Part shown: positions 11,769 through 51,600 of the stretch, piece by piece
Layout: each line of letters starts with the position of its first letter
Numbering within the stretch: position 1 is the stretch's first letter
IMG/VR virus record: IMGVR_UViG_3300028569_000022
Span: 27,441-91,440 of that record
DNA length: 64,000 nt
From: a virus
Direction: 5' to 3' (one strand)
Notes under the pieces: generated by a model
Seen by the model: only the letters and a program-made list of their open reading frames with translations
Databases searched by the model: none
Told to the model about the DNA's origin: nothing
Program-made: the position numbers and the translations under genes

Positions 11769-11780
11769 CATAATATTAGA

Positions 11781-12699: not shown

Positions 12700-12790
12700 A
12701 ATACGCAAAATTACAAAAACTGAACCTGTATATGACATTACAGTAAAAAAAATTAAGAATTTTTTTGCAAATAAAATATTGGTCCACAAC
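12692..12790 (+). mobile_element. Split intein C-fragment (IntC)
   Basis: Block F VYDITV, block G ILVHN, followed by +1 Cys. Confidence 0.92.
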
Positions 12791-16539: not shown

Positions 16540-17445
16540 ATGATAACAAAACACTTATCTTTATCAGCTTTTGACCCAATTAAACTGGCGTATAAATATA
16601 GCACGACTGGAGATCTTAAAGCTGAATATAAAGAGTTTAGAAATGGAATGAGATATTATGATCATGATGCTTTAAAACAGTTTGCTGATGTATCACTCAG
16701 CAACGAAAGCGCTCTAATACTAACTAGAACTCTTTCGTTAAATTCAATTTTTGAAGAACAACAGAAAATATTGTCTGTTAGTGAGTTATGTGGTATGTTT
16801 GTTTTATTTGCAAAAGACACCCCGTTTCTTGGTGGCGATACTGAAGTCAACTACTTTAATGGGCAGTTTTGCATTGGAGGAAAGGGAGAGCAAGCAATTT
16901 TTAATATCGTTCCAGCAAAAGACAATAAAGTATATTTGAAAGTTAATTACAAACGAGTACAAGTAGCTGAACAGTATCCATACGAGGTGTATTTATCTGA
17001 CGACAAATTGCCTGACAACGAGTCAAACAGAGAGTTGTTTGAAGTATCATATAGGAATAAAAAGTTTGCAATAAAAACACAAACTAAAGAAGGAACACGG
17101 TTTTTATCGTTTGGGACAGATCGCATTTTAAGGGGAGTGGGATTGGAGTTAAATAAATCAATAATAAATCCGTATCACTTTGATGTAAAATTTCTCAGCT
17201 TTTCTTCGATTGCATATGGTTCTGATTATGATACAAAGGAAGTGAAATATTATAACACTAACGAATCGTTACTGGAAAAGAAAGCTTTAAATATTAAGGC
17301 ACATAAAGGTCAGAACACAAATATATTATTTGATTTTCCTGTTATTCAAACTCAAACAACAACAAATGTTGGAGTAAACATGGCTGTATTAAAAACAAAC
17401 TTCACATCAACAGGTACATTTAACTCCTCGTTAAGCTCACAATGA
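16540..17445 (+). CDS. Hypothetical structural protein
   Basis: In an operon with PKD/LamG genes. ATGA coupling to the next gene. Confidence 0.55.
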   Translation: MITKHLSLSAFDPIKLAYKYSTTGDLKAEYKEFRNGMRYYDHDALKQFADVSLSNESALILTRTLSLNSIFEEQQKILSVSELCGMFVLFAKDTPFLGGDTEVNYFNGQFCIGGKGEQAIFNIVPAKDNKVYLKVNYKRVQVAEQYPYEVYLSDDKLPDNESNRELFEVSYRNKKFAIKTQTKEGTRFLSFGTDRILRGVGLELNKSIINPYHFDVKFLSFSSIAYGSDYDTKEVKYYNTNESLLEKKALNIKAHKGQNTNILFDFPVIQTQTTTNVGVNMAVLKTNFTSTGTFNSSLSSQ

Positions 17446-29645: not shown

Positions 29646-31868
29646 TTAGAACGTTCCGCCATCCAAAATTAACATGAGATTATCAATGTAATTTTTGGTT
29701 GCAACGTGAGAAGCTAATGTAGGTTCAGCTGCTTCGACTGTGCCAGAAAACTTACCGTTACCGATTACGTCTAACGCTTCGGTAGGAGCTTCTGTGTTAA
29801 CACCGACTACGCCAGCGCCGACAAACAATGTTGCTGTTTCATCATTGTTTACTGAAATCTCAACGCCGTTAGCAGCAGTAATAGTTCCAGAAACATCTAA
29901 GTTTCCAGAAATACTTCCACCAGTAAGGTTTAAGAAGTTAGTGTCTACATATGTATTGAGATTACTGATTGTTGCTTCAAGAGCATCAACTTCGTTATTA
30001 ATAGTTGTATTGAGAGTGCTTACTTCGTCAGCTAAGTCAGAAGCAATTGCTGCTTCAGCAGCTGTTGCACGGCTAACTTCTGAATCAAGTTGACCTTGGA
30101 GGTCAGATGAAACTGAAGATATTGTCGTTGAACTGTTATTAGCGAGTGTTGTTATTGCACCGTTAAGATCGCTGTCAGCCTGTTGAAACGCACTAACGAT
30201 TTCAGTTAAGGAATCGAGAGCTGCTCCATCAACGTTGCTTAGAACGTTATCAATTTGTGATTGTATGTTGCTTGCAACACCAGAAATCGTTGAATTGAGT
30301 GTTGAAACTTCGCTGTCGATCTTTGAATCGAGAGTAGAAGAAACGGACACCATTAACGAATTGAGGTCTGAATCAGCAGTAGCACGAGCTGAAGCTTCAT
30401 CAGCAATGTCTGAAACCAGACCAGCTGAGATAGAAGCAACAGTTGATGTTAAATCGCTGATAGCAGTGCCACGATTGGTAACTTCGTCAGCTAGGTCAGA
30501 AGCAATTGCTGCTTCAGCAGCCATTGCGCGGCCTTCTTCAGCAGATACAGCAGCAGTAAGAGTGCTTACTTCAGAAGCAATTGATGCTTCAAGTGTAGCA
30601 ACTTCAGAGTCAATTTTTGAATCAAGAACGCCTTCAGCTGTCGTAGCACGGCTAACTTCGTCTGACAAGTCAGATGCGAGACTAGCTTCAGCAGCGATTG
30701 CACGGCCACTTTCTGCAGATACGGCAGTATTGAGAGTGCTTACTTCAGAAGCAATTGATGCTTCAATTGTTGCAACTTCTGAGTCAATTTTTGAATCAAG
30801 ACTAGCAGAAACTGAAGCTAATGATGTTGAAGCAGAGTTTGCGAGACTAGTAATAGCACCATTGATATCGCTGTCAGCAGATTGAAAAGCTGAAACGATT
30901 TCAGTTAAGGAATCAAGCGCAGCAGCGTCAACATTACTAAGAACATTATCAATTTGTGATTGTATGTTGCTAGAAACAGATGCGACTGTTGTGTTGAGAG
31001 TGCTTACTTCAGAAGCAATTGATGCTTCAAGTGTAGCAACTTCTGAGTCAATCTTAGAATCGAGAGTGCTTACTTCAGAAGCAATTGATGCTTCAAGAGT
31101 GCTTACTTCAGAAGCAATCGATGCTTCAAGTGTTGCAACTTCTGAGTCAATTTTTGAGTCAAGAGTGCTTACTTCAGAAGCAATTGATGCTTCAAGTGTA
31201 GCAACTTCTGAGTCAATCTTAGAATCGAGAGTGCTTACTTCAGAATCAATTTTTGAATCAAGCGTAGAAGAGACAGACTCAACTGTAGTAGTTAAGGCTG
31301 AATCGGCAGCTATACGAGCAGCTTCTTCAGTTGAAAGATCGCTTTTGATCTCAGCTGAAAGGCTAACTAATGCTGCGGACGAATCTGAGGCTAAACCGTC
31401 TAAATCCGACTGCAAAGACGATGAGATTGAATCCATCGTGGAATTAACACTATTAATCGTATTAACGAGATTCGTAGCAAAGTTTTCGTCATTGCCTAAA
31501 GCAGAAGCTAATTCATTAAGAGTATTAAGCGCATCTGGAGCCATATCGATAACTGCAGCAATTTGCGCATCGATTTTAGCATCAAGAGTGCTTGATACAG
31601 ATTGAATAGTTGTGTTTAGCGTAGCAACTTCTTGAGTAACTCTTACATCAATAGATGTTATGTCCGTTTGGAGATCGGCTGAGATCGAGCTGACGCTAGC
31701 GTCAGTTGCAAAATGACCGTCGCCTCCAATAGGTATTACGCCATTTTCTGAACCATAGTATAATACTGAGTCTACTTCGTTGAATGCCAATTCACCACCA
31801 GAGAGTGCTGCAGGAGCACCAGCTTCACCAGTAGTACGGCGTTTAATGAGGATTGTGTTGTATGCCAT
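29646..31868 (-). CDS. Long coiled-coil fibre protein (Mtd_N-like head, 11-residue repeats, C-terminal DGGTF)
   Basis: ILIKRR...GELAFN; SEVSTLDSKID/SEVATLEASIA repeats; three AL(D/N)(S/T)L.E motifs typical of phage fibres. Confidence 0.8.
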   Translation of the reverse strand: MAYNTILIKRRTTGEAGAPAALSGGELAFNEVDSVLYYGSENGVIPIGGDGHFATDASVSSISADLQTDITSIDVRVTQEVATLNTTIQSVSSTLDAKIDAQIAAVIDMAPDALNTLNELASALGNDENFATNLVNTINSVNSTMDSISSSLQSDLDGLASDSSAALVSLSAEIKSDLSTEEAARIAADSALTTTVESVSSTLDSKIDSEVSTLDSKIDSEVATLEASIASEVSTLDSKIDSEVATLEASIASEVSTLEASIASEVSTLDSKIDSEVATLEASIASEVSTLNTTVASVSSNIQSQIDNVLSNVDAAALDSLTEIVSAFQSADSDINGAITSLANSASTSLASVSASLDSKIDSEVATIEASIASEVSTLNTAVSAESGRAIAAEASLASDLSDEVSRATTAEGVLDSKIDSEVATLEASIASEVSTLTAAVSAEEGRAMAAEAAIASDLADEVTNRGTAISDLTSTVASISAGLVSDIADEASARATADSDLNSLMVSVSSTLDSKIDSEVSTLNSTISGVASNIQSQIDNVLSNVDGAALDSLTEIVSAFQQADSDLNGAITTLANNSSTTISSVSSDLQGQLDSEVSRATAAEAAIASDLADEVSTLNTTINNEVDALEATISNLNTYVDTNFLNLTGGSISGNLDVSGTITAANGVEISVNNDETATLFVGAGVVGVNTEAPTEALDVIGNGKFSGTVEAAEPTLASHVATKNYIDNLMLILDGGTF
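30990..31260. repeat. 33-bp-unit coding tandem repeats within the fibre gene
   Basis: Repeated GAGAGTGCTTACTTCAGAAGCAATTGATGCTTCAAG and GCAACTTCTGAGTCAAT units. Confidence 0.8.
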
Positions 31869-31953
31869 AATTTTAATGTATTTTGTAGTTTGATGTTGCA
31901 GTCATTTGCAACAATATTACTTAATCAAAAACAATTTTTTTTTAGGCGTAAAG

Positions 31954-32050
31954 ACCCTGTAAATATCAGGGGTTGCACCGATTTGCTTAAAAAAACCCTG
32001 TAAATATCAGAGTTTGCACCGACTTGCTTAAAAAACCCTGTAAATATCAA
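31954..32050. repeat. About 2.4 tandem copies of a 40-41-bp intergenic repeat with palindromic core
   Basis: ACCCTGTAAATATCA at 31954, 31995 and 32035. The first two continue with TTGCACCGA(T/C)TTGCTTAAAAAA. Confidence 0.85.
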
Positions 32051-32197
32051 GGTAGATTGGTTGTTTTTTATTTAAAACGGATTAAAACTACATACAAAAA
32101 AATAATGAAATGAGATATACTTCGGTATATATTTCATTGAAATAACTTAGCGGTTCAAACACAACAAACGTGTAAAAACAATCAGAATATGAACAGA

Positions 32198-32819: not shown

Positions 32820-33785
32820 TTAATCTTTATTATTTACTTCTGGCGAGAACCAAATACGAGAAGTTGGCTCTGGCGAGATTTGTGAAGATGATTTAATACC
32901 TTCAGGTAAGACTTCTTCGCTTACGTCTCCAGTTGATAGTTGGTTTTCTGTAGGTATTGAATCTACAGTAGGAACAGGAGTCAGAGCAGGCGTAGAGATT
33001 GGTTGTGTTGCGGATTGTTCTGCTTTAATGGGGTTTAATGCTGTTTCTTTACGTTTTAATGCAATATTAAATGCTAATAAAAGTGTAACAGCTAGCGGGT
33101 CAAACACACAAATTAAAATACAAATAAACGCAATTACCACAAAATCGAGAGGCTTGTTAATTGCTTCTGCTACAAAATTAAATGTTCCTATGTCTTTTGT
33201 TTTGTTAATTTCACTAGAAAGTTGTAAAATATTGCTGTCCTTTTCAGATTTTTGTTGTTGTACTTCTTGATTTCTTTGTGTTAATACTTGAATTTCATTG
33301 TCTGCTTTTTTAATTGCGTCATATGCTTGTTCTCTAGGCAATTTGTAATTTCCAGCCTCCTGCACTCTTTTTTCTTGATCTATTCTGATGCGGTTTAATG
33401 TTTCAATTCGCTGTTGATTTTGATTAATTTCTACATCTAATGTACTTTTTTGACTTTCTATTAGTGTAATTTGCGAATTAATTTGACTAAATTTTGAACT
33501 ATTAATTTGATAGGCAGCTGAAAGATACCCAAATATACCTGCAGACGTAACTACCATTAACGTAAAGATAGCTGTTAACAAATAAGCACGAAGAAAAAAG
33601 GAAGTATTTTTCCAATATCTATACAGAAACGAAGTTGCTACGAGTTTTCCTAGTTCTAAAGAAGATGCCATAACAGCAACTTGAAAAAAACTTCCTGAGA
33701 ATAACGAGGCAATACCAATTACGGAAAAGTAAGCTCCGCACAAAGCAACAAAAAAAGCGCTGAATCCAAGTATAATAGTAAACAT
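32820..33785 (-). CDS. Membrane protein with coiled coil, of a type common in large T4-like phages
   Basis: Three N-terminal TM helices (YFSVIG, SLELGKLV, TSAGIFGYLS), coiled coil, TM with VFDPLAV. Confidence 0.75.
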   Translation of the reverse strand: MFTIILGFSAFFVALCGAYFSVIGIASLFSGSFFQVAVMASSLELGKLVATSFLYRYWKNTSFFLRAYLLTAIFTLMVVTSAGIFGYLSAAYQINSSKFSQINSQITLIESQKSTLDVEINQNQQRIETLNRIRIDQEKRVQEAGNYKLPREQAYDAIKKADNEIQVLTQRNQEVQQQKSEKDSNILQLSSEINKTKDIGTFNFVAEAINKPLDFVVIAFICILICVFDPLAVTLLLAFNIALKRKETALNPIKAEQSATQPISTPALTPVPTVDSIPTENQLSTGDVSEEVLPEGIKSSSQISPEPTSRIWFSPEVNNKD

Positions 33786-33886: not shown

Positions 33887-36280
33887 TTAATTTTCTCTTC
33901 TTTCCTCTGGCTTATAATATACTATTCTGTTGTGTTCAATAGGACTAGCAAGAAGTACTGCTGGTCGCAAATTGCCTTTTCTGGTCTCTTGAAACATATG
34001 ACTCATCCAAGTTTGTTCATAAGGATGTCCCCACTTTGTGTCCAAAAACATCTTTCTGTTTCCTTCTTTACCTACAATCATAGGCCAATTGGCATAATAA
34101 ATTTCCCCATCAATATAAGCTAGCTCATCAACAACATCAATTTTATTGAAAATTGTTCGTGGGCAATTTAAATCGAGTCCTTGTACTGGTAATTTATCGT
34201 AGTGTGGCCACAATTCTGTTCTAACATGCTGAGGAACATTATACCATGAAACTTGCAAATGATTGTCCATATAAACCTCAGTGAAGGTCAGCTTTAAAAA
34301 GTCAAATTCATCCTTAAGCATTATCTTATGGATTTTGTCGAACAAATTAGGTACATATTTCCTAAATCCATTTCTGCAAAACCCTGTGTTTTCAGGGGAA
34401 AACATGCCCATGTCATCCTCAAGAAAAATATAGTAATCACTGTCGGTTTGATCGAAATGTTCTGCTGCTCTGAGTCTGCCTCTATTAATCCCTAAATTCT
34501 CTCCAGTAACAATATGTTCAAAACCATACTCTTTACATATCTGCTCGTTTCCTTTTATTGCCTCTTCGTTATTAGAGTTATCAATTAAAAATTTCTTTGT
34601 TTTATCTAAAAACCCAGGATGCTGTTTATATTTTTCAAGTGTATATCTTACTTGTTGAGGAAAATTAAACGTGAGCATATACAGCGACGTTTTTAATTTA
34701 GATGTGTCTAAGCTCTTACGTATAAGAGCAACTCTGTCGTTCGGTATAGACTCTAATGCAACCGCATTATTAATTAACGCTTGGACAAACTTGACAACTA
34801 AGCCGTTACCATCTAAAGCATATCGTCTATATTTCTCTGGCTCAACATATGACATAAGAGTGAAAACGCTCTCTTCAGTACCCATAAACCCTCCTCTAAG
34901 GGTCTTATCTAGCATTGAGTAATACAACCCATTAGCTTGGTTTATTATTTCTTTTCTTCCGCCAAACAATCCGCCTCGACATACATATTCGACTTTTTTC
35001 CCTGCATAACGATTCATTGCATTAAAATCAAATCCATGAATTTCTGTATTTGCTTCATACGGATAGCTTAAAAACAAAAATGTATCGAGATGTGAAATTA
35101 TGTTATCAAGAGCTCTGTGTTCTGAAAAATATGATTTGCCTACAGTATTCGTTATACCAGCGTCTATCCAAATAAAATATTCAGTATTAAACGGATTCCA
35201 AATCGTGACATCGTTGAGTAAAAACATCTTTGATTGAACAATCGGATTGTACCATTCTAAAGATGCTTGAGGACTATTCGATAGCCATCCTCCTTCTCCT
35301 GTTTGATTGTACCATAACGGATTAGTTCTAATCTCTTGAGTCTTATTCCAAAACGGAGCATACATATTCCGTATATCTTCTAGCTCATAAATTTTAACGG
35401 AAGTATTTTCTCTCGAACGTTTTTCCCAAACTAAGTGTTCATATTCTTTAGGAATATAAATAAACATGTTGGCAGGTGTGTCTAGTAAATTTTTAAAATG
35501 TTCTATGTAATGAGAAAAATCTCTTCCTTGACGATTTATATTCCACAGACCTGTAACGATCGTTAGATTTTTATTTTGTATGTTGTTTATTGAAGTTGGC
35601 TCAGGCAACACACAACTTTCTCTAACTTTATTTAAATCCCAAAACGCGAGAACTTTTCTATTTCCGTTTTCGAACCCATCAACTCTTACATCTTCTTCTA
35701 AATAGGCATCAGGTTCAGGAAAATTGAATGGGGAAGCAATTAAATTGACTGGATAAAACCTGCCGTATTCAACACCTTCATTTTCTCTGTGAACCTCTCC
35801 AGATTTGCAAGACGTCCACGTGTGATCATCTATCTTTTTAGCCCATGTAGTGCTTAGTAGGTATTTACAATTTGAATTTAATATATTGTGAATAACCTGC
35901 TTGCTGTTTTCTAACGGAAGATGACCTAACACATCCCGTACTATTAATAAATCCGCATCAGGTATTTTATCTGTAATTAAATCGAACTCAACAAAATTAG
36001 TGGTTTCGTTTCCGTAATTTTGTGTATTAGCTTCCACTGCCTTTTTAACTATATCTCCGCCAACATAACTTTCAAATGAAGAAACTAGTTCTTTCATCCA
36101 ATTAAAATCTCCACACGGAATATCAACTACAGTTTTAATATTTTTTGCCGTAATAAGATCTTTTATTTTTTTTCTTAAAATTTTAGTTTCATCTAATGTG
36201 CTCCCAGGACCTGATCTACTCTCATTACTCCCGAAACCGTAATTTTCGTAGATGTTTGTAAAAACGTTTTTGTAATCCAT
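33887..36280 (-). CDS. Tri-domain SAM-methyltransferase / HtrL-like / GT-A glycosyltransferase
   Basis: SGPGS...VVDIPCGDFNWM...RDVLGHL (MTase). TIVTGLWNI...WIDAG...GGLFGG...GTEE (HtrL/YibB-like). YIFLEDDM (GT-A). Confidence 0.7.
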   Translation of the reverse strand: MDYKNVFTNIYENYGFGSNESRSGPGSTLDETKILRKKIKDLITAKNIKTVVDIPCGDFNWMKELVSSFESYVGGDIVKKAVEANTQNYGNETTNFVEFDLITDKIPDADLLIVRDVLGHLPLENSKQVIHNILNSNCKYLLSTTWAKKIDDHTWTSCKSGEVHRENEGVEYGRFYPVNLIASPFNFPEPDAYLEEDVRVDGFENGNRKVLAFWDLNKVRESCVLPEPTSINNIQNKNLTIVTGLWNINRQGRDFSHYIEHFKNLLDTPANMFIYIPKEYEHLVWEKRSRENTSVKIYELEDIRNMYAPFWNKTQEIRTNPLWYNQTGEGGWLSNSPQASLEWYNPIVQSKMFLLNDVTIWNPFNTEYFIWIDAGITNTVGKSYFSEHRALDNIISHLDTFLFLSYPYEANTEIHGFDFNAMNRYAGKKVEYVCRGGLFGGRKEIINQANGLYYSMLDKTLRGGFMGTEESVFTLMSYVEPEKYRRYALDGNGLVVKFVQALINNAVALESIPNDRVALIRKSLDTSKLKTSLYMLTFNFPQQVRYTLEKYKQHPGFLDKTKKFLIDNSNNEEAIKGNEQICKEYGFEHIVTGENLGINRGRLRAAEHFDQTDSDYYIFLEDDMGMFSPENTGFCRNGFRKYVPNLFDKIHKIMLKDEFDFLKLTFTEVYMDNHLQVSWYNVPQHVRTELWPHYDKLPVQGLDLNCPRTIFNKIDVVDELAYIDGEIYYANWPMIVGKEGNRKMFLDTKWGHPYEQTWMSHMFQETRKGNLRPAVLLASPIEHNRIVYYKPEERREN

Positions 36281-36286
36281 ATTGTA

Positions 36287-36916
36287 TTATTTTTTAATCT
36301 TGCATACCCATGCTGCCGGTGTAAATTGTTCTTGCATAAATGAATCTAAACAGTATTTGGCAACTGATTCTTGAATGTCTGAGTCTTGTATTTCATGCCA
36401 ATTCCAAAATTTCATGTAAACAGTTTTTTTAAAATATTCAGGAGTGGAAGCATAATCGTGTGCCATAATTATGTCTCCTTGTTTTATATATCTAGACAAT
36501 AAGTTAAATTCACCAATTTTCCAACCGCCGTCACACAACACTAGCGTTATTCCATCTTGCTGAATATATTCAATTGTTTCAGCTTTAACTTGACTATAAT
36601 CTTCATTAAATAAATTTTCTATTTTAACATGTATACCGTTAGTTTCTAACACTTTATACCCTGGTTGATAATGAATATCATTAGTTAATATAGTCGTAAT
36701 CAAATTCAACTCTTCGCATATTATCTTGAGAAATAAAGTAAAACCTCCCATGGACGTGCCTATTTCTAAAATTCTAGACGGCTTAATGGCTTTTATTAGA
36801 TTGTAAAATGATTCATATGTGTACGGGTTTTGCTGAGCTCCATGATTTAAATAGCACGATATGCTATCGTGTGATTCTAAGTTTGATCGCTTTGTTATAT
36901 TTTGTTCATTAAACAT
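36287..36916 (-). CDS. Class I SAM-dependent methyltransferase (Methyltransf_24/CmcI-like)
   Basis: ILEIGTSMGG, LCDGG, IIMAHDY. Confidence 0.75.
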   Translation of the reverse strand: MFNEQNITKRSNLESHDSISCYLNHGAQQNPYTYESFYNLIKAIKPSRILEIGTSMGGFTLFLKIICEELNLITTILTNDIHYQPGYKVLETNGIHVKIENLFNEDYSQVKAETIEYIQQDGITLVLCDGGWKIGEFNLLSRYIKQGDIIMAHDYASTPEYFKKTVYMKFWNWHEIQDSDIQESVAKYCLDSFMQEQFTPAAWVCKIKK

Positions 36917-36922
36917 ATTGTT

Positions 36923-37741
36923 TTATATTCTGTTTGCTTTTAGTTTCAAATAATCATTCAAAAATCGTTTAGTGTATCCGACCGCAAATGTGTTATTTGA
37001 ATTGTTGTCTATAGACATGTGTCCTCCCCAAAATGAAAATACATTAAAAATGTCAGCACTTATTATGTTGTAATGCTTGTTATGTAAATATCTAAATACG
37101 TATTGATCGTCAGTACAACCGTGTGGAAATCCGTTTTTGACGTCCCCAGACATGTAATCAAGGCACTCTTTCAATAAATTAAGAATATAATATTTCTCAC
37201 CTAAAAACACACCTGCATTTAATCCAAAAGGAAGAACGTTGCCGTATTTTTCTTTGTTTTTCTCTAAAAAAGATTGATATTGAGAATTGTAGAAATCACT
37301 TAAATAATTTCGATCCAGCGGTTCATACCCCGTGCCAGCATACTGATTTTCTATGTTAAATAAAATTTTGCAGTCATAAAATTCTAAATATTCAGACGGA
37401 TTAATAATATCTTTCAAAATTAATGTATCTAACCCGTCTAGATATAAAATATACTTCGGTAAATTGTCGTAATTATTTTTTATGTGAAAATATAGAGTTT
37501 CTACTTTGGAAATCCACTTGGTGTAGTGTTCAATTTTTAAAAAATTAACTTGATTGTTATTTTTTATCTTTATTGAATTTAAAGTACTTGCGTTTGCTGA
37601 GTGATTATCCGTTACGGTAAAAATTGCTAAATCTTCAGTCAAGTAAACGGACGTGTTTTGTAGTTCGTTTTTAAAATCAGTTAAAATTGACCCACAAAGA
37701 TATCTGCCATGCAGAACATTGAATTGGAAAAAATCTTTCAA
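36923..37741 (-). CDS. PLOD-like GT-A glycosyltransferase domain protein
   Basis: SKV, YILYLDGLDT, FNIE, LNAGVFLG and DDQY correspond to the PLOD GT motifs D-x-x-D, NSG-x-x-IG and DDQ. Confidence 0.65.
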   Translation of the reverse strand: MKDFFQFNVLHGRYLCGSILTDFKNELQNTSVYLTEDLAIFTVTDNHSANASTLNSIKIKNNNQVNFLKIEHYTKWISKVETLYFHIKNNYDNLPKYILYLDGLDTLILKDIINPSEYLEFYDCKILFNIENQYAGTGYEPLDRNYLSDFYNSQYQSFLEKNKEKYGNVLPFGLNAGVFLGEKYYILNLLKECLDYMSGDVKNGFPHGCTDDQYVFRYLHNKHYNIISADIFNVFSFWGGHMSIDNNSNNTFAVGYTKRFLNDYLKLKANRI

Positions 37742-37768
37742 ATTGTTAATTTAATTAAAACGTTTAAC

Positions 37769-38572
37769 TTAAGCTAACCAAAATCTTTCTACCTGTGGAT
37801 TGTGATTTACTATTAAAATTTTGGGGCTTAAATTTAAATCTGCTGGTTGGTTTATTCCTAATACATTATATACAGCACCTAATAAATATTCATCATTTAT
37901 TGCATACCATCCTCTGAAACAATTCATTTTATTTTGATCGTATAAATCGAATACTACATCGTTCCACATAGTAAACAGCTCCATCATTTTAGTTGAATCA
38001 CAAAAAACATATAAACGAGCTGCCTCATCAAATACTTTAATTTTAGAGCTTGTCGTTAAATTGTATTTTTCGTTCAGTAAATTTACGACTACTTTCATTT
38101 TAACATCCTCGGATTCAACATCCCAACGGGAAACCATATTATATAATATATTTTTATTGTTGAGATGTTCTTGTTTTAATACATCAAAGTTAATATGTGA
38201 GTCAGTTCCGAGCATGGCTATGTTATGCACGTTAAATGCAGCGGCTTGTAAAAGATGGAAACGAGTAGTTGAAAAAGGAAATTTATAATCTGTTTCTACA
38301 AATTTTCTTGCGTAATCATCAACGTCATAACTTTCTAAAAACGATTCATATTGCTCTAATTTTGGATATGTGTCATAAAAATCTTTAAGCTCGTGTACTA
38401 TAAGATTTTTGCGCTGCACATCTGCAAAGTATTTTTTATCATCTGTTAATATAAAATAATATAAATTGGGATGGTCAAAATACAAATTGGTTATTTTTTC
38501 TAAAGCTGTTTTTCTGTATGTCGGTCCGCAACACGTATAGCAAATAGCTAGTTTTTCGTTAAACTGTAACAT
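37769..38572 (-). CDS. Putative GT-A glycosyltransferase
   Basis: N-terminal ICYTCCGPTY, YFILTDD, LGTDSH, NDEY, NHN. Located inside the GT cluster. Confidence 0.5.
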   Translation of the reverse strand: MLQFNEKLAICYTCCGPTYRKTALEKITNLYFDHPNLYYFILTDDKKYFADVQRKNLIVHELKDFYDTYPKLEQYESFLESYDVDDYARKFVETDYKFPFSTTRFHLLQAAAFNVHNIAMLGTDSHINFDVLKQEHLNNKNILYNMVSRWDVESEDVKMKVVVNLLNEKYNLTTSSKIKVFDEAARLYVFCDSTKMMELFTMWNDVVFDLYDQNKMNCFRGWYAINDEYLLGAVYNVLGINQPADLNLSPKILIVNHNPQVERFWLA

Positions 38573-38598
38573 TATTTTAATTATTCGAAGTTTGGATT

Positions 38599-39111
38599 TT
38601 ATTTACAACAAAATAACACACCCATGAAATCTGGAGTTTGTTTGAAATTAGCTTTAACCTTTATCGTGAATCCCCATTCTTTTGTCTTTTTAATAAAGGA
38701 TTGCTTTAAATCTTCTGAATGAAATTCTATAGCTAATTCTGTTATATTGGTTAGATCTTCTGCAGTTAAATCTAAAAGTAACACTTCTCCGCCTTCTATA
38801 TCACACTTTAAAGCTGTTATTGAATGATCTTTTATTAAATTTCTAACTTGATCGGCTGAAGATAATATAACAGAATTAAAAGTAAATTTTGAGTTATTTT
38901 TAGTTTCGTTTATATAAAATGTGATATCGTTGCTGTAAGAATCTATTCCAACAACCTTATTAGCTGTTTTGCCAAAATATATAGGACTGCACTCTTCTAT
39001 GTTTGTTGTGTGCCATCTGCCGCATCCCAGATCTAAAACATTGTGACCACTGACGTTAAAGTGAATCCAATGGTCAGTCGAGTTCTCAGAATTTATAGTG
39101 TAATCAACCAT
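38599..39111 (-). CDS. FkbM-like methyltransferase
   Basis: VLDLGCG, LKCDIEGGE, IEFH. Confidence 0.75.
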   Translation of the reverse strand: MVDYTINSENSTDHWIHFNVSGHNVLDLGCGRWHTTNIEECSPIYFGKTANKVVGIDSYSNDITFYINETKNNSKFTFNSVILSSADQVRNLIKDHSITALKCDIEGGEVLLLDLTAEDLTNITELAIEFHSEDLKQSFIKKTKEWGFTIKVKANFKQTPDFMGVLFCCK

Positions 39112-39127
39112 CTTTATAAACTATTAG

Positions 39128-40390
39128 TTAATGTGTTATTTCCAATTTATGTTCTACTCTTTCTGCCCACCCTTTATCTTTATGAACTGCCCAAGCAACC
39201 ATTTTTACTGGTTTTTTACCAGTGTAAGTAAAAAATTCTTCGAAATGGATAGGTTTGCCAGTGCTAATGAAATCATGCAATTCTTTTCCTTGTATGCTTC
39301 TAGATTTCACCCCAACTCCATCTTCGTCATCAAAGGCTATAAGAATTGATGAATAATTACTGCCTGGTAACTCATGTCTGTGAACAGTAACTAAATTATA
39401 GAATGAGTTAACCCACGGACTGTCGTTTGGAGTTGGTGGATATTGATTTGATAAGGCATATTCCTGTACTTTCTTCTCTTTAAAATTAACTCCAGCAAAC
39501 ACCTCATATTCAGCTAAAGTTCTAGATGTCCCTAATCCATAGTCACCAAAGACAATAGAATCATCTTGTTCAACTCCGAATAGCACACGGATTTTTTTGC
39601 GAGCAAATTCTTGTTTGTTATACCAATCAATTCCAAACTTTCCGTCATCATCCCATTTTAACATTCCGCTTCTTTCTTCTCTCATTGTAGAATGCCAAAT
39701 TACTAATCTGTGCGGATGGAAAATGTTATAGCCATGTGTAAATGACCTTACGGACAAATTAATCTCTTCGCCGCTAAAATATATGTCTGGATCATGCTTA
39801 ACGTCTCTGGCCCACTGGCTTCTAGCAAAAGAGAAATGACCCGACAAAAACCGAGCGTGAGCTGGTTCTGTCATAGTCTCCCATCCTGAAAGCAATGCTG
39901 GACGTATAAAAATAGTACCATGAGGATAAAAACAAGCGAATTGAGCCTGCCAAGGAACGTCTGCTCTACCTACCGGATCCTTAAATGGGTTATAATGAGG
40001 TAGATATCCAGCAATAATTGGTTTGTACCCTTGCTTCTCCATTTGAGAGTGCATTCCGATTAGAGTTGAATCCCAATTTTTGGTGAATCTGTGATGAGAG
40101 TCTAATTGTAAAACAAAATCCTCGTCTGTTAAAAGCTTTTCGTTTATTTGAGCTCTGGCCCACGGTAGACCCAAAGCCTCCTTATATGGAACATCCATTA
40201 TTTTAAATCTAGAATCTAATCTAAATTCGTCTATGTTATCAAATTGGTCAGCAGGATTATATTGCCTGCAAACCCCGAAATGTATTCGCTCTGGATACTC
40301 AGCGTGTGATAACGCATCTTTGATTGTAGGAATGAGCTCAGGGTCTCTATAGCTCGGTAAGTGTACTAAAATGGTTTCTGTATTACTCAT
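39128..40390 (-). CDS. GT60-like polypeptide alpha-GlcNAc-transferase, paralog B
   Basis: LPSYRDPE, WAR, LQLDSHHRF..NWD, SGHFSF, YFSGEE..L.VRSFTHGY, WH. Confidence 0.8.
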   Translation of the reverse strand: MSNTETILVHLPSYRDPELIPTIKDALSHAEYPERIHFGVCRQYNPADQFDNIDEFRLDSRFKIMDVPYKEALGLPWARAQINEKLLTDEDFVLQLDSHHRFTKNWDSTLIGMHSQMEKQGYKPIIAGYLPHYNPFKDPVGRADVPWQAQFACFYPHGTIFIRPALLSGWETMTEPAHARFLSGHFSFARSQWARDVKHDPDIYFSGEEINLSVRSFTHGYNIFHPHRLVIWHSTMREERSGMLKWDDDGKFGIDWYNKQEFARKKIRVLFGVEQDDSIVFGDYGLGTSRTLAEYEVFAGVNFKEKKVQEYALSNQYPPTPNDSPWVNSFYNLVTVHRHELPGSNYSSILIAFDDEDGVGVKSRSIQGKELHDFISTGKPIHFEEFFTYTGKKPVKMVAWAVHKDKGWAERVEHKLEITH

Positions 40391-41621
40391 ATTTTATAAT
40401 TTGTTCAATCTTATCGCACCATCCTTTAGAAATACTGTGAGGCCAAAATCTTGACGAGTATGGTAACTTGTTGTCATCATAATCTACCCACACGTGGATA
40501 AATTTGTCGTTTGGATCTTTGTTTAATAAAGTTTTAATTTCTGGCTCTCCGACATCTCTTCTAAATAAATCCTCTCCTGCTGTATTCAGCATAGCTACCA
40601 CAAAAACATTATAATCAGTTTCTGTAAGAGATTCTTTAAAAATACTTACACAGGTTTTAACTTTATTTTTTAACCCTTTTTCATAATCTCCTTTTATTGG
40701 TGGTCTCTCATTATTTAAAGTTTCTTCGTGAATTTGACGTTTGCTGAAATTCAATCCAGCATATCTTTCATAATCTTGTAGTGTTCTTTCCTCACCAAAT
40801 CCAAACCCATTTAAATCTTCATTACTGTTTCCCATTCCAAACAAAGCCCTGAACCGAGCATAAGATTTTTTATCTTTATCAGACCATCCTGAATGATCTC
40901 CCCAATGTTTAGGTTTGCTCTCTCTGCCATAAAAATGCCAAGCAAGTATTTTATGAGGACTAAATAGATCGTATCCGTGAGTGAATGCTCGTACTGCAAG
41001 TGAGGTTTCTTCTCCGTGAAAATAAAAGTCTGGATCGTAAGGTACTTCTACAACAAACTTGCCTAATGTAAAAATGTAATGACCAGATATGAATCTTGAT
41101 GGAAAGGGTTTTTCCTGATTTTGCCAATCAGGTAATGCAGATGGTCTCAAGAAAGCTGGACCTTCCGGCAAGAAACGTTCTATTCCCATAATCCAAGGGT
41201 GAGTTATTCTATCTAACGGGTCTTTGTCAGGAAAGTAACATGGTAAATATGAAGAAAGAATAGGTTTTTTATATCCATCAACTTGCAAATCCTTAAGCAT
41301 ATTGATAGACTCTGTATCCCAATTTTTAATAAATCGGTGATGACTGTCTAATTGCAATGTAAACTCCTCGCCTTTGTAATGTTGTTGAATTTGACTCCTA
41401 GCCCAACAAGCGCCGTTACTTTGTTCAAAAGGAATGTCTAGTATGTTAAATCTGGAGTCGTTTTTATACTTGTCTATATTTTCGTCTAAGCCATGTTGCC
41501 ACGCGATGCAGAAGACTAAATTTTCCGGAAATTCAGCATTTGCAACACAATCATCAATAGTTGGGATTAACTCAGCATCTCTATAAGATGCTATTTGAAT
41601 GAAAATTTTTGATTTAATCAT
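40383..41621 (-). CDS. GT60-like polypeptide alpha-GlcNAc-transferase, paralog A
   Basis: IFIQIASYRD, GACWAR, LQLDSHHRF..NWD, PYDP.FYFHGEE..LAVRAFTHGYD, GEERTL.DYE. Confidence 0.82.
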   Translation of the reverse strand: MIKSKIFIQIASYRDAELIPTIDDCVANAEFPENLVFCIAWQHGLDENIDKYKNDSRFNILDIPFEQSNGACWARSQIQQHYKGEEFTLQLDSHHRFIKNWDTESINMLKDLQVDGYKKPILSSYLPCYFPDKDPLDRITHPWIMGIERFLPEGPAFLRPSALPDWQNQEKPFPSRFISGHYIFTLGKFVVEVPYDPDFYFHGEETSLAVRAFTHGYDLFSPHKILAWHFYGRESKPKHWGDHSGWSDKDKKSYARFRALFGMGNSNEDLNGFGFGEERTLQDYERYAGLNFSKRQIHEETLNNERPPIKGDYEKGLKNKVKTCVSIFKESLTETDYNVFVVAMLNTAGEDLFRRDVGEPEIKTLLNKDPNDKFIHVWVDYDDNKLPYSSRFWPHSISKGWCDKIEQIIKYE

Positions 41622-41630: not shown

Positions 41631-41891
41631 TCAAGCTACCCAATCAACAGTCTTTATGTCTGTCACGTCGAAATAAATTGCGTGACCAATTGAATTGCCT
41701 TCATTAATCAAAAATCCTCTAAGTTTTCTGGGAGTTTCTGAGTAAGGAGTTCGTTTTTCTAAAATCTCTTCTTTTGTAACGAAGTATTCCTTATTTTCAA
41801 ACTGTTTTTGAATCGCTTTTCTTAAGAATTCTTGCAAATCTCCTCTGCCGACTTGTTCTTGAGTTACTGTGTAATAAGTTGGTTGTGACAT
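41631..41891 (-). CDS. Hypothetical protein at the head of the GT cluster
   Basis: 86-aa ORF, 9 nt from the next gene. Confidence 0.55.
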   Translation of the reverse strand: MSQPTYYTVTQEQVGRGDLQEFLRKAIQKQFENKEYFVTKEEILEKRTPYSETPRKLRGFLINEGNSIGHAIYFDVTDIKTVDWVA

Positions 41892-44058: not shown

Positions 44059-45936
44059 ATGACCTATAGACCCTATACAAATAATGCTGGGGTACCTGGA
44101 AGTTCTACTGCATCAGTAAAACCTCAACCGTATCCACAAACTTCATTATTAGGAGCCTTCGTATCTCGTTTGCCGTATGCATATCAAATCATTGATACGA
44201 TGGTAAAAAATAACCCAAAGTTCTATGAGTTCAAGAACCAATCCTCTAAAAAAGAGGAGATGTTACAAGATCAGTCTGTATTTTTAAATCAAACACAAAC
44301 GTTAGATAACTACGGTAACGGAACTCCGGGATCATTTGCAATAAACAAAGATTATCAAGCATTTGTATATGCAACCGTCGATAAAGACAAACAACGTAGA
44401 TTGTCTGACTACAGAAGAATGGCAGCGTATGCTGAGCTTGCTGATTGTTTAGATGAAATATGTGACGAGTGTATAGTAACGGACGAAAACGGAGATATTA
44501 TTAAATTTCAAGTCAAAGGATCATACAGCAAAAATATTCAAGACTCTCTTAAAAAAGAATTTGATAATTTTATACAAATATATGATTTGGAGCATAATGG
44601 TTGGGAAAAATTCCGTCAATTGCTCGTCGAAGGTGAAATTTTTTACGAAACTTTAATTAAAAACAAAAGAGAGGATCTTGGCGTTATTGGGTTAGTTTCT
44701 ATACCGTCAGATTTAGTAAATCCAGTATATCACAACGTACAAAACGAAATTATTAAAGGATACTTGTTGCGTAAACCAATAATAGGACCAACACAGTCAA
44801 TTAATACTGAAGATCAAGAAGAGCTGATTTTTCTTCAAAAAGCTCAGGTCAGCTATGTTAACTCTGGTTGTTGGAATGAATTCAAAACTATGAGAATTCC
44901 CTTCATTGAGAATTCTAAAAGAGCATATCGCCAGTTAAGTCTTATAGAAGATTCAGTTGTAATTTATCGTTTGGTCCGAGCACCTGAGAGGTTGGTATTT
45001 AAAGTTTATACAGGAAACATGCCTCCACCAAAAGCTGAATCATATATTAAAAGTTTAATGATGAAATATTGGTCTAAAAAGACCTTTAATGGAGCAGAGG
45101 GCAAAACAGCTAACGTATATGATCCCCAATCCATGTTAGATTCTTATTGGTTTCCAGTCGATGCTCAAGGACACGGAACGGATGTTAACCCAATTACTAC
45201 TTCTACAAATTTAGGTGAAATTAAAGATTTGGATTATTTTCTAACAAAGTTGTACAAGAGTTTAAAGGTTCCAATTTCCAGATTCATGACTCCTGGCGAT
45301 CCATTCAAGGATGGAACAGAAATAACTAGAGACGAATTACGTTTTGCTAGGTTTATTATTAGAATTCAATCTCAGTTTGCTTCGGGCATCAAACAAACTT
45401 TTATTACCCATTTAAAGTTAAAAGGATTGTGGAAAGACTATAATTTAAAAGAGCAATCAATAAAAATTAAATTTAATGAACCAACGTCGTTTATGACGAT
45501 GCGGAATCAACAAATTTTAAGTTTGAGGTTTGAAAATTATAATGCTGCTACTCAAGGAGATGCTATATCGAAGTCGTATGCCCAAAAATATTATTTAGAC
45601 ATGACTGCTGAGTTAATGACAGAAAACAGAGAATGGCTCAGAAAAGATGCGGCTCTTAAGTGGGAGTTGGGTCAGATCGAAGCATCAGGACCAAATTTCA
45701 GAGAACAATTAGCATCACAACAAGGTGGTGGAGAAGCTGCTCTTGATGATGGTGGCGGAGAAGCTCCTGCTCCTGATCTCGGAGGTGGAGGAGCGCCTGA
45801 ATCTTCAGATATTCCTGAATTTGGCGGCGGAGAAGCTCCTGATGCTGGTGGCGGAGAAGCTCCTGCTCCTGAGGCGGGTGGCGGAGAAGCTCTTGCTCCT
45901 AATGCGGGTGGCGGAGAAGCTCCTGCTTCAGTGTAA
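44059..45936 (+). CDS. gp20: Portal protein, T4 gp20-like
   Basis: YRRMA...DEICDE, EDSVVIYRLVRAPERLVF, GNMP..KAE.Y, SMLDSYWFP, LYKSLKVP.SR, EITRDELRF. Confidence 0.95.
   Translation: MTYRPYTNNAGVPGSSTASVKPQPYPQTSLLGAFVSRLPYAYQIIDTMVKNNPKFYEFKNQSSKKEEMLQDQSVFLNQTQTLDNYGNGTPGSFAINKDYQAFVYATVDKDKQRRLSDYRRMAAYAELADCLDEICDECIVTDENGDIIKFQVKGSYSKNIQDSLKKEFDNFIQIYDLEHNGWEKFRQLLVEGEIFYETLIKNKREDLGVIGLVSIPSDLVNPVYHNVQNEIIKGYLLRKPIIGPTQSINTEDQEELIFLQKAQVSYVNSGCWNEFKTMRIPFIENSKRAYRQLSLIEDSVVIYRLVRAPERLVFKVYTGNMPPPKAESYIKSLMMKYWSKKTFNGAEGKTANVYDPQSMLDSYWFPVDAQGHGTDVNPITTSTNLGEIKDLDYFLTKLYKSLKVPISRFMTPGDPFKDGTEITRDELRFARFIIRIQSQFASGIKQTFITHLKLKGLWKDYNLKEQSIKIKFNEPTSFMTMRNQQILSLRFENYNAATQGDAISKSYAQKYYLDMTAELMTENREWLRKDAALKWELGQIEASGPNFREQLASQQGGGEAALDDGGGEAPAPDLGGGGAPESSDIPEFGGGEAPDAGGGEAPAPEAGGGEALAPNAGGGEAPASV
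45724..45930 (+). repeat. GGGEA(P/L) coding repeats in the portal C-terminus
   Basis: Several copies of GG(T/C)GGCGGAGAAGCTC(C/T)TG. Confidence 0.75.
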
Positions 45937-47375: not shown

Positions 47376-47818
47376 AAAAAAACTCAAAATATAGACAAGG
47401 CGTCTTCAGACCAAACTTTCCTGAAAAATATAAAGGAACGTTTCCAATATATTTTAGAAGCTCATATGAGTTAAAATTTCAAAAATGGGCTGACAACAAC
47501 TCCAACGTATTAACATGGGGATCTGAAACTATAATAATTCCTTACCCAAATCCACTAACGGGACGAGTATCTAGATATTTTACTGATTTTAACATAACCC
47601 TTAAAGATAAACGCGGAGAAATAAAAAGTTATATCATAGAAATTAAACCGTCCAGCCAACTTCTTCCGCCTTCACAAAAAGGAAAGAGCACCAAATCTTT
47701 AATTAGACAACAAACAGATTACGTTAAAAATCAAGCAAAATGGAAAGCTGCTGCTGAGTATGCTGAGCGCAAGGGAATGATTTTTACTATAATAACAGAA
47801 AAACACTTAGGGATTTGA
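47372..47818 (+). CDS. gp4: Head completion nuclease, T4 gp4-like (TnsA-like)
   Basis: YRQG.F.P..PEKY.G, RSSYE, WGSE.I.IPY, RYFTDF, IEIKP, NQAKWKAA, ITE. Confidence 0.92.
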   Translation: MKKNSKYRQGVFRPNFPEKYKGTFPIYFRSSYELKFQKWADNNSNVLTWGSETIIIPYPNPLTGRVSRYFTDFNITLKDKRGEIKSYIIEIKPSSQLLPPSQKGKSTKSLIRQQTDYVKNQAKWKAAAEYAERKGMIFTIITEKHLGI

Positions 47819-48712
47819 TGTGTTATTTAATTTAAGACAATCTATTTCTGCTTTTAATTCTTTTATTGCCTCTATTAGTACGCCAACTAAATTGCCATAC
47901 GCTACGGTTTTAATTCCGCTTACTTCGCTAACTACTTGAGGAACAATAGACTCGACCTCTTGAGCAATTACTCCAACGTGAGAGCTTTCGTCATCTTTTC
48001 TCTGGAATTCTACTCCACGCAACAGCATTACTTTTGATAACGCATTATCAATCGTGTTAACATTCTTTTTAATACTAGCGTCAGAAAAAGAAGCAATATC
48101 ACCAGAAGTTGTTAATCTTCCGTCTGAATCCAAATTCATTCGAACGGATCCTGAATGATGCCATCGGAGATTTGGAAGTTGATCTGATCCAAAAGTATCA
48201 TTGTGCCAGAATTGAGATCCATCCAAAGCTTTTGAAAAAGTAATTTTCCCACCGTTTATTTTATCATTCTGTCTTGATAGGACGAGATTGTCAACTTCTG
48301 TCTCTCCACTAAGTGTTGCTCCATTCTTAATGGTTACGTTTCCTGTACACAAGTTGAAACTTAATGGTCTTAATTCATTACTTTGACTTAATGTCTCTCC
48401 GTCCTTTGTTATTTTAAATGAGTGAGTTTCACCATCGTTCTGTTCAATGACACTAGCTTTTTCGTTGAAATGTATTACTTGATCTTTAAACGCAACGTCC
48501 GATAAAAAATTTGCATGTTTAGAGACGTTTATCCTAAGAAAATTCACACAAGAATCATCAATGGTACTTACAAATCCATCCGCATTTGTTGTAACAAATT
48601 GGTCAAGATTAAATCTAGCCTCTTTATTAACCGTTGAATCAAATCCCAATATCCATTTGTTGTGTTTATTATCCGAAACGGTCAGCTTTGATATTTGTTG
48701 TATGTCAGTCAT
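47807..48712 (-). CDS. Tail fibre with C-terminal intramolecular chaperone (peptidase S74)
   Basis: FSDASIKKNV..I.NAL...GVIAQEVE...VAYGNLVGVLIEAIKEL. Confidence 0.85.
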   Translation of the reverse strand: MTDIQQISKLTVSDNKHNKWILGFDSTVNKEARFNLDQFVTTNADGFVSTIDDSCVNFLRINVSKHANFLSDVAFKDQVIHFNEKASVIEQNDGETHSFKITKDGETLSQSNELRPLSFNLCTGNVTIKNGATLSGETEVDNLVLSRQNDKINGGKITFSKALDGSQFWHNDTFGSDQLPNLRWHHSGSVRMNLDSDGRLTTSGDIASFSDASIKKNVNTIDNALSKVMLLRGVEFQRKDDESSHVGVIAQEVESIVPQVVSEVSGIKTVAYGNLVGVLIEAIKELKAEIDCLKLNNTSNP

Positions 48713-51559: not shown

Positions 51560-51600
51560 AAATGTATTGCTATTTATCAACTTGCAGCTTAAATAAATTT

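Follow-up and report, generated by a model that had tools for sequence, protein, structure and literature searches.

The seven-gene cassette

The stretch of DNA analysed here is a window of 64,000 nucleotides which forms the final 64 kb of a 91.4-kb viral contig, IMG/VR record IMGVR_UViG_3300028569_000022. The subject of the study is a cassette at positions 33887-41621 of this window, in which seven open reading frames (ORFs) lie on the minus strand with gaps or overlaps of only a few bases, and which encodes a pair of glycosyltransferases (GT) of family GT60 together with putative sugar-extending and methylating enzymes. An earlier note on this DNA had described the packed and co-oriented arrangement, which was borne out by the ORF map, and had proposed that the genes form a pathway for O-glycosylation of the phage's own proline/threonine (Pro/Thr) tracts. 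The genes are given below in the direction of transcription.

40383-41621, minus strand: GT60a, soluble polypeptide-type glycosyltransferase of 412 amino acids (aa) (PF11397, 3.3e-65; phrog_24687, 5.7e-139)
39128-40390, minus strand: GT60b, paralogue of GT60a (36% identical), 420 aa (PF11397, 9.2e-54; phrog_24687, 1.1e-107)
38599-39111, minus strand: probable class I S-adenosylmethionine (SAM) methyltransferase of 170 aa, a weak call from the VLDLGCG motif (motif I)
37769-38572, minus strand: accessory protein of 267 aa, probably a retaining GT-A glycosyltransferase, a lead from ESM Atlas neighbours
36923-37741, minus strand: accessory protein of 272 aa, probably a PLOD-type GT domain, a lead from ESM Atlas neighbours
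36287-36916, minus strand: enzyme of 209 aa of the CmcI/rhamnosyl O-methyltransferase family, which acts in sugar O-methylation (PF04989, 6.2e-6; phrog_15516, methyltransferase)
33887-36280, minus strand: three-domain enzyme of 797 aa, with a SAM methyltransferase domain (~35636-36280), an HtrL/YibB-like domain (~34811-35635) and a GT-A domain (33887-34810)

None of the seven cassette proteins has a membrane segment. The 91-kb record holds no epimerase/dehydratase gene and no nucleoside triphosphate (NTP)-transferase gene, and the earlier statement that nucleotide-sugar synthesis, flippase and polymerase genes are missing stands for the first of these functions; flippase and polymerase families were given no dedicated search. 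The lack of membrane segments together with the lack of the epimerase/dehydratase and NTP-transferase genes indicates that the cassette is suited to direct cytoplasmic transfer of sugars onto proteins.

The GT60 pair

The PF11397 scores of GT60a (221.3 bits) and GT60b (183.7 bits) were far above the curated cut-off of 21, in accordance with the match that had been expected for the ORFs at 40383 and 39128, and the same family was above its cut-off in 22 of 30 related records. The motifs by which the two enzymes had originally been recognised proved to be invariant across 18 phage homologues including both paralogues: Y12/R13 in SYRD, D91-x-H93 in DSH and G202-E203-E204 in GEE. The DxH motif replaces the DxD motif of GT-A enzymes in GT60 as well as in GT27, and prokaryotic members of GT60 were already known (PMC7185993). 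The characterised GT60 enzymes act on polypeptides, and TcOGNT1 makes N-acetylglucosamine (GlcNAc)-alpha-1-O-Thr on mucins (PMC9472816). By analogy, the sugar donated by the phage GT60 enzymes is probably alpha-GlcNAc.

The AlphaFold2 model of GT60a (predicted local distance difference test, pLDDT, 88.4) revealed a GT-A catalytic domain followed by a C-terminal beta-rich domain of ~95 aa which lies outside the Pfam model. A Foldseek search of the Protein Data Bank (PDB) with this model listed ~50 matches, all of them polypeptide N-acetylgalactosaminyltransferases (ppGalNAc-transferases) of family GT27, by which mucin-type O-glycosylation is started, at E values of ~1e-9 to 1e-10; the catalytic domains aligned over ~280 columns with a root-mean-square deviation of 4.1-4.8 A and an identity of 11-16%. 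Sequence searches of the PDB with GT60a and with the GT60 profile found no GT60 relative among the solved structures. The C-terminal beta domain (model residues ~316-407; present in both paralogues, window 39128-41621) occupies the position of the GT27 lectin domain. In the model it has roughly seven strands and one helix, and does not look like an obvious ricin-type lectin.

The two GT60 enzymes may also occur as one protein. A single ORF of 870 aa (L105:10004-12616) matches both paralogues, and one open frame of 859 aa at G008:C1 ~88400-90600 contains both matches; the occurrence of two GT60 matches in one ORF suggests that both enzymes work together. With regard to the acceptor, a P4H-type oxygenase (prolyl hydroxylase) was absent from records G000 and G023 and from the 99%-complete G002, which makes Thr/Ser the likelier acceptor than hydroxyproline. 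A hydroxyproline acceptor, as in Skp1, was set aside on the same ground.

Partner and accessory enzymes

The 797-aa protein combines three domains in one chain. Its residues 8-195 matched a methyltransferase family (phrog_3382, 1.3e-36) and residues 239-483 matched HtrL_YibB (PF09612, 1.3e-11) with 45 bits against a cut-off of 24.1. The C-terminal 307 aa gave no Pfam match, and the protein and the profile of this domain retrieved nothing useful from the PDB by sequence. The AlphaFold2 model of this part, built from a 60-sequence alignment (pLDDT 92.8), folds as GT-A, and E131-D132-D133 is invariant in the 60 sequences, so that the fusion of an HtrL-like domain with a GT-A domain described previously is upheld. 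The Foldseek matches of this domain were GnT-I, Mimivirus R699, ppGalNAc-transferases and LH3 (E ~1e-7 to 1e-8, template modelling score 0.42-0.53), a generic mix of GT-A families, unlike GT60a for which the matches listed were of GT27 only.

Three of the remaining four genes are assigned with less certainty. The 209-aa ORF is above the PF04989 cut-off, though marginally, at 26.5 bits against 23.2, and the match covers only profile positions 12-108 of 206. The 170-aa ORF gave sub-threshold Pfam matches to Methyltransf_31 (E=0.023) and Methyltransf_23 (E=0.12), with 14.9 bits against 27, and no relative in the PDB by sequence. Among the three SAM-methyltransferase domains that had been claimed, the N-terminal domain of the 797-aa protein and, marginally, the CmcI-type enzyme are thus retained, and the 170-aa ORF stays a weak call. 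The previously named PLOD-like GT and second GT-A enzyme are suggested by language-model neighbours: 27 of 30 ESM Atlas neighbours of the 272-aa ORF carry GT_PLOD (PF25342), at 0.97, and those of the 267-aa ORF carry Nucleotid_trans, GT8, GT6 or TOD1 families, at 0.95-0.96. Pfam gave no match for the 272-aa ORF even at E<=1, BLASTP of this ORF against the GT_PLOD-bearing cassette protein of locus L009 gave E=0.55 only, and the 267-aa ORF had neither a Pfam nor a PHROG match.

Proteins with Pro/Thr tracts in the window

Four ORFs of the window carry Pro/Thr tracts of 50 to >130 residues, which are partly encoded by degenerate tandem repeats. They are the candidate acceptors of the pathway.

1909-2907, plus strand: 332-aa protein with a ~90-aa Pro/Thr tract at residues ~202-292 (candidate acceptor); it follows a large ORF (3-1922) which runs off the window start
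7711-8823, minus strand: candidate acceptor of 370 aa which contains two Pro/Thr tracts; it opens a leftward string of genes whose last member is a tail-collar fibre gene
48753-50210, minus strand: candidate acceptor of 485 aa, with (PTVT)n in its middle part and a tail rich in Pro, Ser and Thr; it adjoins an S74-chaperone fibre gene
63368-64000, plus strand: ORF cut by the contig end, with >130 aa of tandem Pro/Thr-tract repeat (candidate acceptor); degenerate DNA repeats of period 24, 36, 60 and 96

The tract genes sit in strings with the tail-collar fibre gene (3934-6000; phrog_523 at 1.8e-32), the S74-chaperone fibre gene (47807-48712; Peptidase_S74 at 1.1e-14) and gp5-like hub or baseplate-like genes. 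The 'probable virion proteins' of the earlier note are accordingly present as four tract ORFs, and it is their position beside fibre and baseplate-like genes that suggests a place in the virion. The 485-aa protein has a 56%-identical orthologue in L019, whose contig also has GT60, and among the relatives of the tract proteins RCC1 and P-domain modules were found in two. As a separate observation, a domain of ~65-90 residues is shared by the 7711-8823 protein (residues 59-122) and the 48753-50210 protein (residues 345-428); the two proteins hit one and the same stretch in other phage loci, namely L101/L030, with L111 in addition for one of the pair.

Insertion and conservation of the cassette

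The relatives identified by their portal protein comprise GT60-positive as well as GT60-negative records. One of the latter, G021, is a complete genome of 217 kb with direct terminal repeats and a portal 69-75% identical. The orthologues of the genes flanking the cassette (the 86-aa ORF at window 41631-41891 and the 321-aa ORF at 32820-33785) lie ~330 bp apart in this genome with one 96-aa gene between them. As the flanks are nearly contiguous, the coordinates 33887-41621 delimit the inserted block exactly, and judged from this gene order the cassette is a discrete, mobile unit. Orthologues of the four tract genes of the window were found in 0 of 4 cases in G021, while most neighbouring genes have one. 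The gene at the empty site (123754-124041) is 80% identical to the window gene at 3569-3889, which is 30 kb away, and this points to rearrangement around the insertion point.

The composition of the cassette was compared over 93 viral GT60 loci (1.74 Mb in total). The core consists of GT60 (93/93, often as a tandem pair), the HtrL-like domain (80/93) and the GT-A domain (70/93). Homologues of the 209-aa, 267-aa and 170-aa ORFs are present in 14, 9 and 1 of the 93 loci, respectively, and the middle genes vary among the loci, with GT2s, FkbM methyltransferases, a GT_PLOD-FkbM fusion and carbamoyltransferases. The family is large, with at least 582 confirmed viral stretches in IMG/VR and ~3550 protein clusters at 90% identity, almost all of them unnamed.

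Coupling of GT60 to Pro/Thr tracts

The position of tract ORFs relative to GT60 was analysed in the 93 viral loci, of which 1.57 Mb (1574 kb) fell into distance bins. A Pro+Thr/Ser tract of at least 25 residues qualified an ORF, and 112 ORFs did so. The distribution revealed that 40 of the 112 lie upstream of GT60 on its own strand and end at a distance of no more than 500 bp, a bin which makes up only 46 kb of the 1574 kb (binomial p=2e-32). The density of tract ORFs was ~87 per 100 kb in this bin vs 1-13 elsewhere, with a second peak 4-6 kb downstream of GT60, just beyond the cassette. With the tracts masked, BLAST separated the 40 upstream proteins into 15 groups or more. Members of the largest group are linked in a chain; two or more distinct conserved N-terminal regions occur among them, and in each case tracts and variable distal modules come next, as is typical of fibres. 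After the loci were collapsed by GT60 identity, an adjacent tract ORF was found in 26 of 62 groups (80%) and in 15 of 27 groups (70%).

The converse sample started from the tracts. Viral contigs were picked solely by a (PT)5 DNA pattern and the controls by a random 14-mer. GT60 was present in 9 of 69 (PT)5 records; at lengths of at least 20 kb the counts were 9/46 against 0/39 for the controls (Fisher p=0.003), and by CheckV most of the GT60-positive (PT)5 records look like fragments of large genomes. In this sample of contigs the co-occurrence that the earlier note wished to see tested is supported, in agreement with the clustering of tract ORFs upstream of GT60. A PTPTPT DNA pattern was also found in 6 of 6 GT60-positive records (6, 2, 1, 1, 31 and 23 matches) with 0 matches for the reversed pattern, the window's own record giving 6 forward and 0 reversed. 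Five large GT60-negative records (888 kb total) had none (0/5).

Bacterial counterparts

A scan of one genome per bacterial or archaeal species yielded 188 GT60 stretches, some of which lie on large contigs or chromosomes of cultured isolates; many of the 188 are metagenome-assembled contigs and may be phage. Off-frame artefacts may account for many of the apparent Pro/Ser/Thr ORFs where bacterial loci are high in GC, and only low-GC or Pfam-confirmed loci were used. The chromosome of Jiulongibacter sediminis (L415:5951-13154) carries, in this order, genes for a UDP-glucose dehydrogenase, an epimerase, a short GT60, a 262-aa tract protein, a GT60, a carbamoyltransferase and an HtrL/GT-A fusion. 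The 262-aa protein consists mostly of (TPTPTxTPS)n behind a twin-arginine-like signal. No phage genes lie nearby, the other flank being an HNH endonuclease and a DUF2357/PD-(D/E)XK gene.

A short-form GT60 was further found 1-4 kb from the VgrG spike genes of type VI secretion systems (T6SS) in four genera.

L459:13075-15570, L476:10270-13131, L432:13064-15547 and L474:13295-16543: VgrG with tract tails, in Paraburkholderia, Ralstonia, Achromobacter and Burkholderia

These VgrG proteins contain Phage_GPD, gp5 OB and gp5 trimerisation domains followed by C-terminal tails of 100-270 residues of the (PT)n or (PPPSET)n type. VgrG corresponds to the baseplate hub of phages, and its assembly takes place in the cytoplasm, which fits soluble enzymes acting before assembly.

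Cultured relatives and known systems

Within the phages of GenBank the GT60 family is confined to four, namely the Xanthomonas jumbo phage XacN1, Xoo-sp13, CM1 and RAS14, and their DNA polymerases place them in a single clade. The GT60 of XacN1 is ORF334; after it come a carbamoyltransferase, a pair of small ORFs and, where the HtrL-like partner would be expected, an ORF of 546 aa. This phage has 31 PTPTPT sites, including a Pro/Thr tract in the nearby 3313-aa ORF325, which comes after the baseplate wedge genes. Purified XacN1 virions showed at least two Schiff-positive glycoprotein bands, and the authors proposed these as products of phage glycosyltransferases (PMC5852040). The XacN1/Xoo-sp13/Stenotrophomonas CM1 and RAS14 group shares with the window the core of the cassette, a GT60 35-38% identical and many PTPTPT sites, the 546-aa ORF being matched by position and not by alignment. 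The group differs in having a single GT60, carbamoyl instead of methyl decoration and a Rak2-related lineage, and the XacN1 cassette adjoins replication genes. Full-text literature searches found no published link of GT60/PF11397 to phages or to Pro/Thr tracts. The nearest published statement to such a pairing is the remark of the XacN1 authors, and phage-encoded virion glycosylation as such is already known for mycobacteriophages.

The protist GT60 enzymes (Trypanosoma cruzi TcOGNT1/2, Dictyostelium Gnt2, and Gnt1 acting on Skp1) have in common with those of the phage the PF11397 family and the DxH motif. TcOGNT and Gnt2 also share the Thr-rich, Pro-rich mucin-like tracts as acceptors, which in the phage are predicted, and Gnt1 is likewise a soluble cytoplasmic enzyme. 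The phage GT60, whose activity is predicted, differs in having no Golgi anchor, in the extra ~95-aa C-terminal beta domain, in being encoded by phage or bacteria, and in occurring usually as a tandem pair teamed with an HtrL-like/GT-A enzyme. The GT27 ppGalNAc-transferases of animals and apicomplexans are the nearest solved folds and resemble the phage enzyme in DxH, in the logic of dense Pro/Thr/Ser-tract glycosylation and in the order of a catalytic domain and a C-terminal beta-rich domain. The low identity given above, the Pfam assignment, which is not GT27, the absence of an obvious ricin-type lectin and the place of action (cytoplasm vs Golgi) set them apart.

Two viral systems are comparable. 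Giant viruses (PBCV-1 with Vp54, Mimivirus with its fibrils) encode soluble glycosyltransferases which work without endoplasmic reticulum or Golgi, and Mimivirus R699 is among the fold matches reported above. Giant viruses also have multi-domain enzymes of the GT-plus-methyltransferase kind, which invite a further comparison. They are viruses of eukaryotes, and their glycosyltransferase families and linkages are other ones. The giant-virus analogy was drawn by the XacN1 authors themselves (PMC5852040). In mycobacteriophages, virions are glycosylated at the C-termini of capsid and tail-tube proteins (Freeman 2023, as cited in PMC12619734). So far as that citation describes them, phage-encoded glycosyltransferases are thought to decorate the phage's own structural proteins in the host cytoplasm, as proposed here. 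The two systems differ in the enzyme family, in the acceptors (capsid and tail-tube C-termini vs internal Pro/Thr tracts of fibre-like proteins), in the hosts (Actinobacteria vs probably Gram-negative aquatic bacteria) and in the evidence, which is experimental there and comparative here.

Genomic setting

The record was estimated by CheckV as ~40% complete, which implies a jumbo phage genome of ~230 kb. The setting of the cassette includes the following gene.

44059-45936, plus strand: portal protein (phrog_213 at 3e-100), diverging from the leftward gene string that holds the cassette

Against T4 gp20 homologues from cyanophages and enterophages of the T4-like kind, the portal reaches 28-31% identity. 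A nucleotide search of the cassette against GenBank phages gave no match, and there is no close cultured relative. The label 'T4-like' given earlier is for these reasons right only in the broad sense of a distant gp20-type portal, and not in the narrow one. Other genes of the window include a gp44-like clamp loader, fibre genes, a gp5-like OB domain and ribonucleotide reductase genes.

The large-subunit ribonucleotide reductase gene (window 10701-13693) is split into two ORFs by an HNH-type homing-endonuclease ORF at 11821-12699; in G021 the corresponding matches are ~100 bp apart and overlapping. A 728-aa ORF at 51562-53748, for which no family match was obtained, lies in a GC-rich stretch (45% vs ~35%) and contains many degenerate units of 33/66/123 bp (52552-53043) encoding Gly/Leu-rich repeats of the GGLGGLAGSLG type. 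The 3' end of the portal gene (45724-45927) has 27/30-bp tandem repeats which encode an acidic Gly/Pro-rich, APDAGGGE-like tail. A 41-bp tandem repeat with CCCTGTAAATATCA is present in 2.6 copies at 31950-32053, in a non-coding gap beside the coiled-coil fibre gene at 29646-31868. A TAAATA-N5-start pattern is seen before the portal gene as well as before the GTG at 42734, which lies upstream of the cassette; the reading of this pattern as a late promoter is suggestive only and is not relied on.

Genes for the synthesis of 3'-phosphoadenosine-5'-phosphosulfate (PAPS) lie on the same contig, ~16-18 kb before the window start (L075:8900-11727). They encode CysD (PAPS_reduct family, 1e-39) and a fused CysN/adenosine 5'-phosphosulfate (APS) kinase (APS_kinase, 2e-63), whose combined action yields PAPS. 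A sulfotransferase (PF13469, PF00685) could not be recognised in the 91-kb record; sulfation, be it of the glycans or of the tract proteins, is conceivable.

Interpretation and alternatives

The explanation that we regard as probable, with some reserve, is that the seven genes form a cytoplasmic pathway which O-glycosylates the phage's own Pro/Thr-tract appendage proteins, where GT60 would initiate, the HtrL-like/GT-A enzyme would extend, and the variable genes would extend further and methylate. The pathway put forward in the earlier note is in this respect strengthened by comparative tests of position, enrichment, presence/absence and fold and by the glycoproteins of XacN1 virions; the donor GlcNAc in it is assumed, and the order of steps is one that we infer.

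During infection, presumably at its late stage, the soluble GT60 enzymes would move a first sugar from a host UDP-sugar to the hydroxyls of Thr (and Ser) in the extended (PT), (PTxT) and (TPS) tracts of the modular fibre-like proteins of the phage. The two-domain partner, HtrL-like plus GT-A, would lengthen this first sugar. Lineage-specific extras would add residues and O-methyl caps; in the present cassette these would be the GT-A-like and PLOD-GT-like proteins and up to three SAM methyltransferase domains, and in other phages GT2s, FkbM methyltransferases and carbamoyltransferases. From such a pathway one would expect a dense 'bottle-brush' glycan along the linkers and stalks of tail or baseplate appendages, which would stiffen and extend the appendages, shield them from proteases and alter their adhesion targets.

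Several observations weigh against this explanation. The glycosylation of the Pro/Thr tracts is a prediction from sequence comparison, and the authors of the XacN1 study identified neither the proteins in their glycoprotein bands nor the enzyme family nor the tracts (PMC5852040). The tract genes of the window lie 7-30 kb away from the cassette and none is adjacent to it. Their products have no structural annotation in Pfam or PHROG, the only matches being repeat-driven ones to phrog_15511, and no homologue emerged for the first 285 aa of the 485-aa protein, in a search which failed to retrieve even the query. The compared loci are phylogenetically linked, and the p-values consequently overstate independence. 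Small complete phages with (PT)n tracts exist without GT60, and the GT60-positive record G023 has short tracts only. A 22-kb portal-related fragment (G018, L074) encodes two proteins with uninterrupted runs of (PT)20-30 (7287-8660 and 17439-19016) and no GT60, and is either a counter-example or simply incomplete. The small phages and this fragment indicate that GT60 is not required for such tracts.

Among other explanations, it is unlikely that the tract proteins, though glycosylated, are no parts of the particle and serve as released adhesins, as proteins that bind a matrix or as scaffolds inside the cell, in which case no glycan-coated virion would result. Such a role would agree with the lack of any recognised structural domain in the tract proteins, with the Rv2525c-like glycoside hydrolase, RCC1 and P-domain modules of some partners, and with the twin-arginine-like export signal in J. 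sediminis, by which substrates need not belong to a particle. It is opposed by the location of the window's tract genes, which share their strings with genes for a tail-collar fibre, an S74-chaperone fibre and a gp5-like hub, by the fibre-like build of many partners (conserved N-terminal region, variable distal modules), by the VgrG partners, which are true parts of an injection machine, and by the detection of XacN1 glycoproteins in purified virions. An effect on the host envelope is improbable to a similar degree. Here the cassette would build or alter a glycan such as the lipopolysaccharide (LPS) core, O-antigen, capsule or a lipid-linked intermediate, for example to block superinfection, and would be near fibre genes because accessory genes gather there. 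The cassette turned out to be linked to Pro/Thr tracts, which occur in 15 or more unrelated proteins, and not to fibre genes as such, the GT60-negative relative G021 has fibre genes and no tracts, all characterised GT60 enzymes act on polypeptides, the GT60a model resembles only ppGalNAc-transferases among the matches listed, and the cassette has no membrane protein, flippase or polymerase (no search was aimed at the latter two families). Against these points, HtrL/YibB takes its name from a gene of the Escherichia coli LPS-core cluster, so that a lipid or a polysaccharide is conceivable as acceptor, and this counts against the favoured explanation as well; polysaccharides and natural-product sugars are further substrates of CmcI-type methyltransferases and of carbamoyltransferases, the Joint Genome Institute (JGI) label of some homologues is 'glycosyltransferase involved in cell wall biosynthesis', and the J. 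sediminis locus adjoins a UDP-glucose dehydrogenase and an epimerase.

The targets of the enzymes might also be other proteins of the phage, for instance at the termini of capsid or tail-tube proteins as known from mycobacteriophages, with the tracts as plain linkers and the adjacency a result of shared gene-block ancestry. The C-termini of capsid and tail-tube proteins are the phage precedent documented in the source cited for them (PMC12619734), and the chain-linking of the largest upstream partner group by shared N-terminal domains suggests that adjacency is partly inherited. This is nevertheless quite unlikely, as the at least 15 unrelated partner groups, the VgrG-(PT)n partners and the enrichment in the (PT)5-first sample are hard to explain by one inherited block. 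Hypermodification of phage DNA bases against restriction is very improbable. Phage glycosyltransferases often modify DNA (PMC12619734), and G002 has a ThyA-family gene, a possible hydroxymethylase which may be an ordinary thymidylate synthase. This role is little supported because the gene appears in G002 only, PF00303 (the ThyA/hydroxymethylase family) giving no match in G000, G008, G023 and G021. No report of GT60 acting on DNA was found, and coupling to Pro/Thr-tract genes and to VgrG has no rationale in DNA modification.

Significance

Glycosylation of phage particles by the phage itself has so far been documented for mycobacteriophages, and the present evidence points to a second, mechanistically different and very common system. 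A wider generalisation is offered tentatively, as a possibility we would not yet bet on: GT60 with its HtrL-like/GT-A partner may represent a widespread prokaryotic cytoplasmic 'mucin-type' O-glycosylation of Pro/Thr stalks on the appendages of contractile injection machines (fibre and baseplate proteins of jumbo phages, VgrG of T6SS), and it could also be the prokaryotic or viral source lineage of the protist GT60 (perhaps GT27) mucin initiators.

The idea is directly testable, since XacN1 and Xoo-sp13 are in culture. If glycosylation of the Pro/Thr-tract appendages is true, large phages of water and soil would normally carry dense mucin-like O-glycans on their appendages, and this would influence adsorption, host range, stability, antigenicity and the tendency to stick to mucus or polymers. 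It would give a function to the uncharacterised prokaryotic GT60 members of CAZy and explain many puzzling Pro/Thr tracts in phage and T6SS proteins. The system could offer a simple, soluble and lipid-carrier-free means for O-glycosylation of designed peptides in bacteria, and it would bear on the origin of mucin-type initiation in eukaryotes.

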